From positions 608,001 to 672,000 of the forward strand of contig CAVSHB010000001.1 of NCBI GenBank assembly GCA_963727775.1: a DNA stretch of 64,000 nucleotides, written 5' to 3'. The position numbers were made by a program. How positions within the stretch are numbered: the stretch's first letter is position 1; the number at the start of each line of letters is the position of its first letter. The DNA comes from an uncultured Nitrospiraceae bacterium. GTDB lineage: Bacteria > Nitrospirota > Thermodesulfovibrionia > Thermodesulfovibrionales > SM23-35. This document shows, in pieces, positions 45,001-51,000 of the stretch.

Positions 45001-48000
45001 TCTATCGGCGCGGTTAATACCATAACCTTTAAGCAGATGACCAGTGATCATACTATTGAGGTTGTTTTTGAGACAATGTAAAAGTTAATTCAGTGGGTTG
45101 CACAGCTGAGACAGGGATCGAATATCCTTACACACCGGCTGATGAGTTTCTCGCCTTCTCCGGATATCCTGTCTCCTTCTAAATGTTTTTCTGCCAGATG
45201 TCTAAGAAAAAAGTTGATGTAGGCGTTATTAAACTGTGTGGCAACCAGAAGACGCATGCGTTCAATCTTCCCCTGATTGACGAGGTAACTGTGCATAAGT
45301 ATCCCTCGCGGCGCCTCTAAGACACCTGTCCCCTGTCCGCTTGCCGTCAGATCAGCGTCGACGGTCATCTGTGCAAGGTCTATCTTCTCTGTCAGATGAA
45401 GTATTTTTTTTGCGGCCCAGAAGATCTCCAGAAGGCGGCAGGCGTCATACGACTCCAGTGTCAATGAACTGCGGTTGCGTAACAGATTAGTAAGGTCAAG
45501 ATTAAGCAAATCCGGGTCGTGCAATGGTCCATTCTCCTGGAAACTACGGGACAGAGGCCCAACGAGCATGATCCCGTCCGGAAACCCCAGTCTTGTTAAA
45601 AAAGGAAATTTGGCAAGAGTCCAATCAGTTCTTAATTCGGAAATGTTATCCATAAAATCGTTGCGTCCAAAACGGAATTCCTGTCCTCCTTTTTGATTGT
45701 ATACGCAGAATGCGTCTTCTCCATCATTGCCATCGTAAGCTACAAAGTTAATGCGTTGTTCCGAAGGGAAAGGGATACTTTTCGACGAAGAATGAATCTC
45801 CCCGAGTTGTTGAATGAGACTTAGTGTGCGCGCTTTGACATCCATAGTTATAGTGCGAATTTCTTCAATGTCGGCAGAAGATGGAGACGAAGAAAAGCGG
45901 CCTATCCCGATCGTTACAGGATGAGACGTGCGTTTCCCCAGGAGCCGGACAATGCGCAATCCTGCATTACGCAGAGCAAAGGCTTCCCTCGTTATATCGG
46001 GGTGACTTTTCATAAGTTCAAAAATTCCTGCAGATGCGCCCATAAAGTCAGGCATGGTCAGAAAAAAATAACTTAAAGCGTGGCTGTCGATCCATTCACC
46101 TAATACCATTATTTCGCGGAGGGCTTTTACAGAGGGGGTCGGCTGGATCGATAGCGCTTCTTCAATGGCGCTGATTGAAGCAACCTGATGGGAGGATGAA
46201 CACAGGCCGCAGATCCGTGAGACCATATGAGGAACATGCTCAACACGCAGCCCGCGGGTAAATCCTTCAAAACCGCGAAACTCATGTACCAAAAACCGCG
46301 CTGTCTTTATTTTGCCTTCTTCGACCTCGATCTGAATATTGGCGTTTCCCTCTATTCGCGTGGCCTTCTGAAAAAGAATTTTTTTGCTCATCTGATCCTC
46401 GATCTGTCACTCGGGAAATAGCGGTTGAACTTGAGTGAGCTGTTCGCATGTTTGCGGTAGATCTTCATCACCGACTTGATCTGGTCTTCCAAATGCGGAT
46501 GGCGTCCAACGAGTGAACTTAGCATGACCTCTTCAAAACTGCTCCCTTCGTCCATTTTTTTGAAAGCAGTCTGCGAAGGTCCGCGACATCCCCAGCACGG
46601 AAGGCCACCCCGAGGACAGACAGCCCCGCAGCCGCCCTTTGTCATGAATCCCATACATATAGCGCCACGGGAAGTGAAACAATGGTCTTTTCCCCATTCA
46701 GGTCTTGGGGCGACCCAGAAATGCTCTGCCGGAATTTTCTGCGGTTTGCGGCTGCACTCAGCACATACAATGGGTTTTGTTTTTACAGATTGCGCTTCAC
46801 CTTTGAGTTCGTTAATGAGCCGGCTGAGAAGGCCGACGTTTGGCGGGCATCCCGGAAGGTAATAATCAACCCTGACGAAATCATCCAGTTTCCTTGCGCG
46901 TCTGAGCAGTTTTAATTCCTCTTCCTGGTCCTGGTAAGTTGCCCGGGCTATCCCGCGCGAGCCCGACATGTAATATGCGAGGGGGTCTTTTGCATGGCCG
47001 TAAGATTCTTCGATCAATTCCTCAAGTTCGTATTGGTTGGCATAAGCCGGTATACCTCCAAAAGCGGCGCATGTCCCCCATGCAATGAGATATTTGGCCT
47101 TATGGCGGGCTTCTATAAGCTTTTCCTCGTCTTCTTTAACCCTTACCGTGCCATCAACAATTGCGATTTCTACCTCTACGATTTCTTCGGCATCAATCAG
47201 CATAGGGCAATATGAGATATTTATCTTTTTGAGAAGGTTTGTCAGCATTGCTTGGTCTTCCAGCAATACCGCAGAACAACCGCCGCAGGTGGACAAAGAA
47301 ACAATAGCAGTGCTGGTCCGGTTTTTCTTTCTCAATGGAGGAGGCATGTTGCGCATAATTACGCCTATTGATTTTTCAGGAGCGTTCAACGTCATCAACA
47401 GCATCCGCAGGCGGATGATTAAGCCCTGCAATATATACAGACCCAGTTCGGGTTCTGCCTTAATCCTCTCGGTGAACTCGTCCAGCTTTACAGGAAACAA
47501 TAGGGTACGCCCGGCAGCAGAAGCGTGGGCTGTCCTGCTTTGGCCGGTGATTATGGATGTCTCCCCAAAAAATTCTCCAGGTCCTAAATGCGCTAAAACG
47601 TACCTGTCATTATCCGGTCCCTGGCTGATCTCAATCTTGCCCTCGACTACAATAAATAGCCTGTCGCCGGGATCACCCTGATGAAATATGTATTCTCCAT
47701 CCTCGAACCATACACATTCTTCCCGATTGACAGAGACATCAACTGAAGAGTGTAATGACTTCTCTCGTGTCGGTAAATCTTTCAGATCTTCAGATTCCTG
47801 ATATCCCGCAGCCTGTGTGGACCCTGATTTTACGATGACATCAATATCAGGCGGCTGCGGGGATTCTGTCTGCTCATTCCGTTTATTTTCAATCAGGGCG
47901 CGTAAATTTTCATCGCCTTCAACTACAGCCTGCACGAGACGGCTTGTTTTTGTAATCCGCAGGCATAAAGTCTTAAACAGATGCGTGATCACTCCGGGAT

Positions 48001-51000
48001 CATGACGTATACGATTCAGCAATGATATACGGGTCAGGGGTAAAAGACAACTGCGGCTGATTGCTGTGGCAGTGGCTGCCCTGGCGTGATGGTCAAACAG
48101 CGCCATTTCTCCAAAAAAGTCCCCACGTTCCAATAATGCGAGAACATTCTTCTGCTCGTCTTTATTCCGGCTGATCTCAACAGCCCCCGATTGAATAATG
48201 TACATGGTATTACCCTGGTCGCCCTCACGGAATATGATCGCGCCTTTCTCGTAGGTAATGCCGAAAAGCTCTTCGCCCTTGCTCATGGAGATATGCTCTG
48301 CGCACTTTGAATAAGCACGCTGTTTCCTCCTCAATTCAGTTCGGTCCTGCCTGCTCCAGGCTGAAACAGTATAACATATGGATAATGCCGATAAGGAACA
48401 ACAATATATAACCCGGGAAAATTTTGGCGGGATATATGGTTTTCAGGCATGGTATCATATTACACGTCAAGTCGAAAGAAAAACCCCTCGTCCGGGAAGG
48501 ATGGTGCTTAGTGCTAAGGAACAGGTCTTATGCTGGGAGATAGATCAAAAAAAGCTCAGGTCATTTTCCTCATAGGAATTTTCATTACGGGGTTACTGGC
48601 ATTTTTAATGGTCATAAAATTTCGTCCCCTTGAAAGTCTCGAAGGCATGATGTACGACCTGAGATTCAGACTTATGGGGAATACGCCGCCTCCTGAAAAT
48701 ATTGTTATCGCTGCGATAGACGATAAAAGCATCGAAAGACTCGGGAGATGGCCGTGGAGCAGAGATAAGATTGCCCGGCTTATCACAAAGCTGACTGAAG
48801 CAGGGGCAGAGTTGATTGTATTTGATGTATTCATGACCGAAAAAGAAGAACACGATCCGGTCTTCGTTAAGACCGTGAGAGATGCGGGAAACGTTTTGCT
48901 TCCCCTTGTCTTTTACTTTGACAGGAGGACGGATACCAAAGAGAGCGAGCCTTTGTTGAACGCTGCGTTTCATTCAATTAAGGACGCCGAGAAGTTTAAC
49001 AGATATGCTCCCCTGAGTGTTAAGGGTGTTCTTGCCCCTTTGCCGGAACTCATCCGGGAATCTATGTCGCTCGGACATATCAATATGGTCCCGGACAGAG
49101 ACGGAATTCTCCGGTGGGAAATGATGGCCCTTGAATATCATGGATACCTGTATCCATCCCTGGACGCCCAGACAGCAGCAGTTTATCTTGCAATACCACA
49201 TGAGAAAGTAAGTGTTCATGCCACTGAAGGGATACAATTAGGGTCTAAACGATATATCCCGACTGATGAATATGGCAGGAGCCTGATTTTCTATTATGGA
49301 CCGTCAGGTACATTCAGGCAATTTTCAATTGCCGATATAATGGAAGACAAAATACCGTCCGGATTCCTGCAGGGTAAAATCGTGCTTATCGGTGCAACGG
49401 CGCTGGGGATTTATGATCTCAGGGTGACGCCTTTTTCCGAGGTCATGGCCGGAGTCGAAAAGCATGCAAATGTTATTGCTTCCGTCATCGAAAACAGGTT
49501 CCTCAGGAAAGCTCCCTTCTATGTAAACCTCATTATACTTCTGCTCTCCGGGTTTATTCTCTCTATTACAGTAGGAAGATTTAAGTCCGGCATTTCGTTC
49601 ATCATCTCCTTTATTATGACTTTATTTCTAATAACGCTTAGTTACTGGTTGTTTGCCGGAAAGGGTATTTGGATAAATGTCGGATATCCGGTCATTACCG
49701 TGTTGCTTGTATTTGTAAACGGGACAGCCTATAGCTATGCTGCCGAGGAGACATATGCAAGGAAAATACGTACCATGTTTTCAAGCTATGTAACAGAGAG
49801 GGTCGTTGATGAACTAATCAAGAACCCGGGTATGGCAAAACTCGGAGGCGAGAGAACAGAGGTGACCATTCTTTTCTCGGATGTGAGGGGGTTTACAGCT
49901 TTTTCTGAAAACCATTCGCCTGAAGAAGTCGTTACAATCCTCAATGAGTATCTCGGGGCCATGACAGAGATCATATTTAAGTGGGAGGGCACACTCGACA
50001 AGTTTATAGGGGACGCTATCCTGGCCTTTTGGGGTGCTCCAATGAAGCAGGATAACCATGCTGATCTCGCTGTAAAATGTGCGCTGAACATGGTAAAAAA
50101 ACTCGATGAACTGCAGCAGAAGTGGATTTCTGAGGGGAAGCCTGCCCTTAATGCCGGGATAGGAATAAATACCGGCGAAGTGATCGTGGGCAATATCGGG
50201 GTAGAAGGTAAGAAAATGGACTATACGATTATCGGAGACCATGTGAACCTTGCGTCAAGAGTTGAGTCGTTGACGAAAAAGTACAATGCCGCTCTTCTAT
50301 TAACGGAATTTACTTTAAATAAAATAAAGGGGGCCATAGTTGGGGGAAGAATAAGCCATGTAGAGGCGACAGGACTGGAGAGGGTCATCGTAAAAGGCAA
50401 GGAAAAAGCGGTTGCTATTTATGAAGCCAAGTCGCTCGAACACGGCGGTCAAAGCAGGATTGTTGAATGTGAGGAAGGGAAAATAGTGCGCCACAAAGAA
50501 AAATAGTGGGCCCGGAAAATCCGGTTGACGGTTATGTCACCGGTTCTATGAGTTAACCCACTTAATTCATAAAATATACGGGTGCCGACAAATACAGTAT
50601 TTACGCTCATTCTCGGCCCGGTACAAATCGGGCCTCCGAGGCAAATTCTTTCTTCGAAAGAATTTAAAACCGCTTAAATACTGCATCTGTCGGCAATCTT
50701 ATGAATAGTGCGGGTTAAAATAGCAGGCATGAGAATACGACTCGCATTCGGGTTCATCGTTTATTTTATCGGAACCTGTTTGCACGAACTAACGCATTAT
50801 GTTGCAGCCCTCCTATTGGGGAAGGCTGAAGGTTTTTCGGTAATCCCCAGGACGGAAGGGAACCGATTTGTACTCGGCAGTGTAAGGTATAGGGTCAGAT
50901 ATAAGTTCCTGTCATCTTTTATAGCCGTAGCCCCTCTCGCCTGGTGGGCAATCCTGTTCCTGATATTGCTTTATCTCCATATCATCCGGCTGCGCAATGG

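Follow-up and report, generated by a model that had tools for sequence, protein, structure and literature searches.

A two-subunit [NiFe]-hydrogenase with two predicted cyclic-nucleotide-binding domains fused to its small subunit, and its possible link to cAMP signaling

The stretch of DNA that we analyzed (the window, 64,000 nucleotides) comes from an uncultured Nitrospiraceae bacterium and contains the two genes of a [NiFe]-hydrogenase, which overlap by 4 nt at the small-subunit stop and are translationally coupled (Table 1). The first-pass annotation had described a 433-aa MvhA-like large subunit with both Ni-Fe motifs and a 4-nt overlap, a 632-aa small subunit made of two cyclic-nucleotide-binding (cNMP) domains and an MvhG-like module, and a divergent CHASE2 cyclase. 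Domain matches and motifs bore out this description (PF00374 with RICGLCSSSH and DPCLSCATH for the large subunit, PF00027 twice and PF01058 for the small subunit, and CHASE2 with PF00211 for the cyclase; the genome has just one other cyclase). At loci L104, L105, and L187 (G486), the neighborhood of the hydrogenase likewise includes FecR-TPR and CHASE2 cyclase genes, and the 3896-aa secreted repeat protein is probably a passenger of the region. A CRP-box scan gave 28 matches versus 27.9 expected, with none in the intergenic gap 48287-48529, and no sigma-70-like promoter was called in that gap.

Table 1. Positions of the hydrogenase genes, their domains, and neighboring features in the window
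Feature	Position	Strand	Details
[NiFe] large subunit	45090..46391	-	433 aa, PF00374; C61, C64, C427, C430, E14, R362; ends at H433
Small subunit gene	46388..48286	-	632-aa ORF, PF00027 x2 + PF01058
Hydrogenase small-subunit module	46388..47317	-	aa 324-632; C334, C337, C406, C480 and eight C-terminal Cys (508-567)
cNMP domain B	47387..47731	-	aa 186-300; G241 E242, R251, C-helix R292; runs into hydrogenase module
cNMP domain A	47942..48265	-	aa 8-115; G59 E60 M61, R69, C-helix R110; Bd1971/CRP type
CHASE2 class III cyclase	48530..50506	+	CHASE2 + PF00211; divergent; adenine-type Lys and Asp
Class II cAMP phosphodiesterase-like metallo-beta-lactamase	26221..27132	+	HxHxDH; sole cluster member in genome
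Broken cNMP-Ser/Thr kinase gene	27373..27894	+	Internal stop, cut short
Mutator-family transposase	28056-29276		Downstream of broken cNMP-Ser/Thr kinase gene
TPR/beta-barrel gene and FecR gene	29432..33281	+	
3896-aa secreted repeat protein	33391..45081	+	Convergent with large subunit
Second cNMP-Ser/Thr kinase, then calcineurin-like phosphoesterase	60978..63290	-	Kinase with degenerate cassette

The small subunit (numbered after removal of a 16-aa longer TTG start) runs in the order cNMP-A, C-helix, disordered linker, cNMP-B, C-helix, and MvhG-like Fe-S module, with no evident signal peptide. Its two PF00027 stretches are matched with an E value of 1.7e-46, the first at aa 11-93. Sequence alignment to the closest solved relative, MvhG (5ODC_E; E value of 3e-46), identifies the hydrogenase module as MvhG-like with three clusters, and all 12 cluster Cys are retained in at least 119 of the 120 listed homologs. 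Of 110 near-full-length homologs, 107 have both cNMP cassettes (Gly-Glu and Arg) intact; across this set, conservation is 0.73 for cNMP-A, equal to that of the catalytic module (0.73), versus 0.16 for the linker. Among the listed homologs, the C-helix Arg is kept as R110 in 115/120 and as R292 in 120/120. The first cassette reads RAA, which had been noted earlier as a departure from R[ST]A. Because PKA regulatory subunits that bind cAMP also carry RAA (5KBF and 5JR7), this is not a defect, and degeneration of the cassette was ruled out on this point.

The closest parallel for the fused domains is Bd1971, a cAMP-activated EAL phosphodiesterase (PMC6717892; PDB 6HQ3/6HQ5) whose N-terminal cNMP domain has a near-identical cassette and contacts and controls the enzyme through a C-helix dimer, as may be the case here. 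Pairing by motif reading matches E60, M61, R69, and R110 of cNMP-A with the cAMP contacts Glu58, Met59, Arg67, and Arg108 of Bd1971, and position 115 is Asn in 63/120 listed homologs, comparable to Asn113. Bd1971 has one domain per chain, an inter-chain dimer, and an EAL output, whereas the fusion has two domains per chain and a metalloenzyme output. A domain-swapped Bd1971 chain aligned to our small-subunit model over 110/111 residues (model residues 7 to 295; Z, 14.0; rmsd, 2.8), a span that apparently corresponds to barrel A plus helix B. The model is weak at two Fe-S regions (pLDDT of <50 at 412-462 and 547-569).

In the large subunit, the motifs RxCGxC and DPCxxCATH supply four Cys ligands, and both are present in 120/120 listed homologs. 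Residues E14, R362, D115, and D425, which we take to be second-shell residues of the Ni-Fe site, are conserved as well. The closest solved relatives are HydL (7T2R_D) and MvhA (9SW2_F/5ODC_F), and the structure model matches MvhA with a TM score of 0.84. Judged by its Ni ligands, second shell, and Fe-S Cys, the pair has the sequence expected of a [NiFe]-hydrogenase.

With the large subunit as the query, the fusion was found at 50/50 loci with enough upstream DNA, 45 of them intact and 5 in pieces (two being one stretch); intact copies on 45 independent contigs rule out an artifactual fusion. The family occurs in Nitrospirota, Deltaproteobacteria, and Chloroflexota and is rare. We counted carriers in 10/317 genomes of the order with this genome included (reproducing an earlier count of 10) and, with the seed genome included each time, in 3/401 of its own phylum, 2/401 of the class of an Anaerolineae carrier, and 1/401 of the phylum of a deltaproteobacterial carrier. 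These counts contradict the view of the first-pass annotation that the fusion is common in anaerobes; its figure of at least 1164 genomes probably stems for the most part from HoxI and from the cNMP-fold gene that stands alone in group 3b operons, each of which we examined in one example. A genome-collection scan by small-subunit alignment was likewise dominated by the generic cNMP motif, with 4/80 loci belonging to the family. In the ESM Atlas, we found only one cluster, with identical architecture and 53 members, and none of 51 matching plasmid records covered 80% of the fusion.

Could the pair be a decaying or noncatalytic module that no longer serves as a hydrogenase, either an Fe-S scaffold free of Ni or a mobile passenger in cAMP islands? 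Copies are broken at the five loci given above and in 3/10 carrier genomes of the host's taxonomic family, the distribution is patchy, transposases lie near family loci, and the His of the RxEGH motif is replaced by Asn in 118/120 listed homologs. However, the same Asn is found in the sister lineage, the Ni ligands and second-shell residues are invariant down to ∼47% identity, hyp genes adjoin the pair in L010 and L163 (hypFDE upstream in L010), and some breaks may be assembly errors. We therefore regard decay as very improbable.

In a large-subunit tree with only four labeled references and no group 2 sequence, the family formed its own clade (support, 1.0; stem, 0.70) within the poorly resolved 3c/3d radiation. 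The best solved and profile matches of the pair are all to group 3, with bit scores far under the cutoffs (VhuA, 173 versus 800; VhuG, 169 versus 450), and the small subunit shares only 26% identity with the MvhG encoded elsewhere in the genome. At none of 94 family loci did an mvhD or hdr gene occupy an operon position, which extends the earlier observation that no MvhD/HdrA partner is adjacent here; an Hdr-like gene lies 7 to 8 kb off, divergent, in L185, L192, and L193. No diaphorase or protease gene follows the pair in operon position at family loci, and normal Mvh and Hyh operons exist elsewhere in the same genome. On these grounds, the pair is best placed by sequence in a long-stemmed clade near groups 3c/3d and is not a bona fide Mvh. 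Public annotations call family members F420-(non)reducing or NAD-reducing hydrogenases.

The large subunit stops at its last His, without a C-terminal maturation extension, in 120/120 listed homologs, whereas the genome's own MvhA does have the extension. The extension is also missing in 10/89 non-family representatives, some of which may be truncated, and among 20 checked of 30 matched Anaerolineae-class loci, the sole large subunit without it was one family member. Compared with the group 3c MvhAG(D)-HdrABC complex (PDB 5ODC), the pair has in common the fold, the cluster ligands of both subunits, and the placement in the 3c/3d radiation; it differs in its unlinked MvhD/Hdr, its missing extension, and its two fused cNMP domains. 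Thus, the earlier label "Mvh-type" holds for ancestry and fold but not beyond, and an ordinary Mvh was ruled out.

Adjacent diaphorase genes (HyhBG and HoxFU), as in groups 3b/3d, are missing at family loci, although they are present at control loci L093, L094, and L196 and at sampled Anaerolineae loci. This bears on the idea that the cNMP folds, like HoxI or the 3b protein, form an accessory module that serves docking or is related to NAD(P)H and is unresponsive to cyclic nucleotides. A cNMP fold is indeed tied to a group 3 hydrogenase in HoxI of Cupriavidus necator (group 3d), in the stand-alone group 3b gene, and here, and the passage of PMC12319191 that cites Burgdorf 2005 ascribes NADP binding to HoxI. 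In contrast to the fusion family, the other two are separate proteins with degenerate cassettes and a diaphorase present: in HoxI, His replaces the Arg of the cassette, and the Glu is missing from the 3b protein, whereas the family keeps both residues and is only 20 to 23% identical to HoxI. With cassettes intact, domains fused, no diaphorase adjacent, and cAMP genes enriched nearby, we set this role aside as a first choice and consider it improbable.

At 16/29 dereplicated loci, a gene for a cyclase, for a class II phosphodiesterase, or for another cNMP protein lay within 5 kb, versus 0.7 expected, with test profiles derived from genes of these same loci and with other carriers up to ∼2.5-fold richer in such genes; the count was 0/21 at canonical group 3 control loci, 19 of them from one class. 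When loci were clustered at 70%, 4/9 had a cAMP gene nearby. The cyclase linkage, earlier called local, is thus recurrent at the level of cAMP genes. Phosphodiesterase and kinase neighbors are mostly convergent, without co-transcription, and the presence of a cyclase in the genome does not discriminate carriers (10/10) from non-carriers (36/47) in the host's taxonomic family. The other cNMP neighbors are receptor-effector fusions (kinase, SulP-STAS, GAF, rhodanese, sigma-54, and GGDEF), which suggests that the hydrogenase sits in a cluster of cAMP effectors. In class III cyclases, a Lys and an Asp specify the adenine substrate. Since the linked cyclase carries both, cAMP is favored as the candidate ligand. 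The family-wide conservation of cassette and base-cap residues, together with the recurrent cAMP-gene neighborhoods, makes it well supported that the small subunit is suited to cyclic-nucleotide binding, as the first-pass annotation had proposed.

No conserved redox partner gene emerged across the 94 family loci, and a ferredoxin-motif scan gave four scattered matches and no constant neighbor. ApbE is the first downstream gene in 4/56 (followed by EtfBA in L010 and L140), which makes it a candidate partner for a single lineage. Given two intact-looking cNMP domains, no adjacent electron-partner gene, and frequent cAMP signaling neighbors, the pair is probably either a hydrogenase that a second messenger switches directly or an H2 sensor coupled to cAMP signaling. 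Both had been suggested earlier, and both stay the best readings.

Our preferred explanation, to which we give about an even chance, is a cAMP-gated cytoplasmic hydrogenase with its partner in trans. A two-subunit enzyme from the group 3c/3d radiation would be the effector of a cAMP circuit, with cAMP made by the receptor cyclase and removed by the class II phosphodiesterase, as their families suggest. The Hyp machinery (the genome encodes HypD and other hyp genes) would load Ni-Fe without proteolytic processing. In the structure model, the two cNMP domains pack together within one chain as a CRP-like pseudo-dimer. Binding of cAMP would move the paired C-helices. Of these two, C-helix B, which may continue into the strand with the proximal-cluster CxxC, would switch H2 turnover or electron exit via the three-cluster wire. 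Electrons would then reach a partner encoded elsewhere, for example, ferredoxin or MvhD-HdrA. Several observations count against this explanation: the lack of a conserved redox partner gene, which leaves no job identified for the enzyme; the missing extension, a trait common to H2-sensing hydrogenases; the 13/29 loci with no cAMP gene inside 5 kb; the mostly convergent neighbors; the imperfect controls; the broken copies; and the weak model at the Fe-S regions.

An H2 sensor that evolved from group 3 independently and feeds cAMP/kinase signaling is a more tentative explanation. Slow H2 turnover would reduce the Fe-S wire, whose redox state would alter cAMP affinity or the tandem cNMP surface and so integrate H2 and cAMP; the tandem module would bind or release a kinase, phosphatase, cyclase, or phosphodiesterase. 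Such a sensor, separate from group 2 sensors, may be an H2-and-cAMP coincidence detector in which Fe-S redox state sets the cAMP affinity of the receptor pair; in this way, it would control a circuit of cyclase, phosphodiesterase, Ser-Thr kinase, and PP2C, resembling those of eukaryotes, in uncultured anaerobes. Several points are consistent with a sensor. Redox partner and protease are missing in operon position, and the extension is absent, as it is in the regulatory hydrogenase (PMC7294309). In L122, L169, and L172, a PP2C gene overlaps the stop of the large-subunit gene; in L117 and L166, the pair is followed by a cyclase gene of the same orientation. Other hydrogenases to regulate are present in all five carriers tested and in this genome. 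Precedent exists in the HydDB sections consulted, which list sensors linked to a kinase, a diguanylate cyclase, or a phosphatase. However, the three PP2C loci are closely related, the neighbor varies by lineage where one fixed partner would be expected, cNMP domains are normally inputs and no output domain is present, and large subunits without the extension are also seen in metabolic groups 4c and 4e (PMC7294309) and among the 10 non-family representatives mentioned above. HoxBC/HupUV (group 2b) and the putative group 2c sensor, in the descriptions consulted, likewise have two subunits, no extension, and signaling neighbors, but they are of group 2 ancestry, have a histidine-kinase or diguanylate-cyclase partner, and are described without a cNMP domain; the pair here has group 3 matches, and neither a kinase nor GGDEF is a constant neighbor.

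In the literature searched, we found no description of a cNMP-hydrogenase fusion and no hydrogenase under direct allosteric second-messenger control, and none of the 29 [NiFe] classes of HydDB is linked to cAMP in the passages of its Table 1 that we consulted. The earlier statement that the family had not been described therefore stands for the fusion, but the large-subunit clade may already be "group 3e." The main text of a Chloroflexi preprint (10.1101/2021.08.23.457424) presents under this name a divergent clade near 3c and 3d, by its claim confined to Anaerolineae, with only a small subunit besides, no accessory or electron-transfer genes, and partners left unassigned by its authors; that text has no cAMP, cNMP, cyclic, or nucleotide-binding wording. 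Both are orphan two-gene clades near 3c/3d, whereas the fusion family spans Nitrospirota and Deltaproteobacteria as well as Chloroflexota. Compared by description only, the two may be the same clade. The "group 3e" of Desulfobacteria MAGs (PMC9723726), a novel group 3 lineage by its large-subunit tree, is called periplasmic with cyclic nucleotides unmentioned, and the pair here, again compared by description only, has no evident signal peptide.

If true, either leading reading would be the first of its type: in one case a hydrogenase that a ligand can switch, in the other a new H2-to-signaling route. The regulatory hydrogenase can be expressed with generic Hyp proteins, and the same should work for this pair because it comprises only two genes and requires no maturation protease, which makes the question open to direct testing. 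The pair could yield a switchable H2 catalyst, and the annotations of its family noted above would misguide metabolic reconstructions.

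The first-pass annotation had described a [NiFe]-hydrogenase whose small subunit carries two cyclic-nucleotide-binding (cNMP) domains, A and B, and this fusion proved to be real and conserved. With the large subunit as query, 93 loci were recovered, 50 of which had enough upstream DNA for the fusion to be checked; it was present in all 50 (45 intact copies and 5 in pieces). The nearest solved chains were MvhG 5ODC_E, HydL 7T2R_D, and MvhA, and no NCBIfam model reached its own cut-off for either subunit. Structure models of both subunits agree with their Mvh-like relatives: the predicted large subunit matched MvhA with a TM of 0.84, and the predicted hydrogenase module of the small subunit matched MvhG (Z 18.1, rmsd 4.2, 245 residues).

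Genes of the window discussed in the text (window coordinates)
Feature	Position	Strand	Remarks
cNMP-Ser/Thr kinase pseudogene	27373-29276, including transposase	+	internal stop; shortened before Mutator-family transposase
3896-aa secreted protein	33391-45081	+	NHL and DUF5122-type propeller repeats, Big_5, InlB B-repeat domains
[NiFe] large subunit, 433 aa	45090-46391	-	start overlapped 4 nt by small-subunit stop
Small subunit, 632 aa	46388-48286	-	two cNMP-binding domains and hydrogenase small-subunit domain
CHASE2 class III cyclase	48530-50506	+	divergent from hydrogenase pair
MsrB and MsrA, adjacent	51486-52766	+	each with N-terminal hydrophobic leader; 1 kb past cyclase
Type II restriction-modification pair	56240-57936	+	XhoI-family endonuclease overlapping N6/N4 methyltransferase gene
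Second cNMP-kinase	60978-63290	-	degenerate cassette; calcineurin-like phosphoesterase directly after

A 50%-identity library contained three full-length family representatives; among full-length matches, the scores then dropped from 479 to 348 bits. In a FastTree phylogeny of 113 sequences (20 family members, 4 labelled references, and 89 representatives, with fragments and sequences lacking either Cys motif left out), the family formed a single clade (support 1.0, stem 0.70) within the poorly resolved 3c/3d radiation, with two extension-bearing proteins as its sister. Said in the annotation to be common in anaerobes, the fusion is instead rare: counting the seed genome of each survey, carriers made up 3 of 401 genomes in the phylum of this genome, 10 of 317 in its order (all from one family), 2 of 401 in the class of an Anaerolineae carrier, and 1 of 401 in the phylum of a deltaproteobacterial carrier.

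Full-text literature searches, most of whose results were judged from their listings, returned no description of a cNMP/hydrogenase fusion; the portion of PMC10787695 consulted is unrelated to it, and the HydDB text consulted (PMC5037454) has no cAMP-linked class. A Chloroflexi preprint (10.1101/2021.08.23.457424) describes in its main text a "group 3e," an orphan clade near 3c/3d with a small subunit only, called unique to Anaerolineae; its passage on this group makes no mention of cyclic nucleotides, and the anatomy fits our family as far as the description goes, figure and supplements aside. Another "group 3e," periplasmic and from sulfate reducers, appears in part of PMC9723726. As a cNMP fusion, the family apparently has no earlier description; within the group 3 [NiFe]-hydrogenases it is a variant whose clade has possibly been named already from phylogeny alone.

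Judged from sequence, the catalytic parts look intact. The best 120 of 3014 large-subunit matches, the query included, without exception show both Cys motifs and lack the C-terminal extension, the final His being the last residue; 118 of them carry Asn for the His of RxEGH, as does the sister lineage. Library proteins P0245 and P0246 of that lineage have the RIEGN motif, yet bear a 13- to 17-aa extension. Over the 83 loci reaching the large-subunit C-terminus, DPCxxCxxH was found in 80, an Asn variant in 2 (one stretch twice), and Gln in 1. Glu14, Arg362, Asp115, and Asp425, which we take to be second-shell residues, are conserved. All 12 cluster Cys of the small subunit are kept in at least 119 of the best 120 of 304 homologues. 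An extra Cys, C360 (∼47207-47209, minus strand; listed with region 47822-47864), is invariant in 120/120 homologues and shared by MvhG 5ODC_E, not by other MvhG/VhuG chains. The extension is kept in the same genome's MvhA and HyhL and absent from 10 of the 89 non-family representatives. That genome also encodes HypD, further hyp genes, and one protease; according to a section of PMC7294309, normal Hyp machinery serves extension-less large subunits of sensors and groups 4c, 4e, and 4g. Broken copies occur in 3 of the 10 carriers of the taxonomic family. A non-catalytic or decaying module fits worse than the effector and sensor readings and is very unlikely.

The receptor parts, two predicted cNMP domains, look intact as well. 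Of 110 near-full-length homologues, 107 have Gly-Glu and Arg in both cassettes. Domain A matches the catalytic module in degree of conservation, the 45-residue linker does not, and the RAA motif of domain A is that of cAMP-binding PKA subunits. The cAMP contacts of Bd1971, a cAMP-activated EAL phosphodiesterase, as given in a section of PMC6717892, were paired by motif reading with E60, M61, R69, R110, and position 115 of the small subunit (Asn in 63 and Asp in 26 of 120 homologues). The swapped Bd1971 chain aligned with the model over 110 residues spanning 7-295 (span ends only), as would result if domains A and B of one chain paired in the manner of CRP. In the model, the C-helix of B (279-313) leads through a short hinge into the strand preceding C334/C337. 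The cNMP domains might instead play the role of HoxI, the cNMP-fold protein of group 3d named in part of PMC12319191. In HoxI the cassette has no Arg, and in one stand-alone protein of group 3b it has no Glu, whereas the family has both; this reading fits worse, and we consider it unlikely.

Genes were called as ORFs and clustered, and cluster representatives were scanned with Pfam (ORFs below 90 aa for ferredoxin motifs only). The cyclase linkage, previously regarded as local, extends beyond this genome: a cyclase, class II phosphodiesterase, or other cNMP gene lay within 5 kb in 16 of 29 loci (dereplicated at 90% identity, at least 4 kb of flank each), against 0.7 expected from this genome, a contrast to be read knowing that some carriers are ∼2.5-fold richer in such genes, that kin are not independent, and that the profiles derive from these very loci. 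Stricter clustering gave 12/20 (80%) and 4/9 (70%), and no cAMP-pathway gene turned up in the 21 canonical group 3 loci examined (245 kb). Most cAMP-type neighbors are convergent with the hydrogenase. The first gene past the large subunit was of the cAMP pathway in 25 and PP2C in 3 of 56 loci, not dereplicated. A cyclase lay within ∼26 kb in 4 of 5 genomes checked, being the sole cyclase of one (G486, 3.6 Mb). In the window lie genes for a phosphodiesterase, for two cNMP-kinases (one broken, one whole), and for FecR/TPR proteins, together with one of the genome's two cyclases, whose adenine-type Lys and Asp we read as adenine-specifying. In genome G507, a cNMP match close to the hydrogenase (C3:129860) also contains an internal stop, as the kinase pseudogene of the window does. 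FecR and TPR/beta-barrel genes precede the large secreted protein; the hydrogenases of loci L185 and L194 likewise have large secreted repeat proteins on their flanks.

MvhD, HdrA, HyhBG, HoxFU, and FrhB were absent from operon position in the ORF/Pfam scan of family loci. Elsewhere, the genome of the window encodes HdrA-MvhDGA and HyhBGSL in complete operons, and 5/5 other carriers tested have additional hydrogenases and MvhD domains. HypC and protease genes are convergent with the hydrogenase in one locus. In one lineage (L010:13463-16600, L140:2812-5988), ApbE, EtfB, and EtfA directly follow the large subunit, the ApbE gene of L140 overlapping its stop. One carrier clade (L185:2-3094, L192, L193:115-4171) has genes for an Hdr-like flavoprotein, a MetV-like protein, folD, and folE, divergent and 6-10 kb upstream. 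In an Anaerolineae-class carrier, a 365-aa 4Fe-4S protein is encoded 1.5 kb past the large subunit (L231:4244-5341, plus strand); it was not seen at any of the other loci. At L195:10266-10760 (minus strand), the genome's mvhD begins at the hdrA stop, its first strand without a separate ATG, GTG, or TTG start, which points to an HdrA-MvhD fusion that is split or frameshifted, or else to an unusual start. A group 4-like membrane complex (L197:1945-9137, G000:C2), whose large-subunit end has no obvious CxxC, looks Ehr-like.

That the pair is orphan, lacks the extension, and is coupled to PP2C genes in one lineage would suit an H2 sensor, but it has neither an output domain nor a constant partner, and we hold this role to be possible only tentatively. 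The simplest reading, to which we give about an even chance, takes the pair as an effector of cAMP, in which the input domain would be followed by a C-helix and then the enzyme, as in Bd1971, in a hydrogenase clustered with other cNMP effectors and with enzymes that would make and break cAMP. The effector and sensor roles are coupled thermodynamically, and the difference between them is one of physiological direction.
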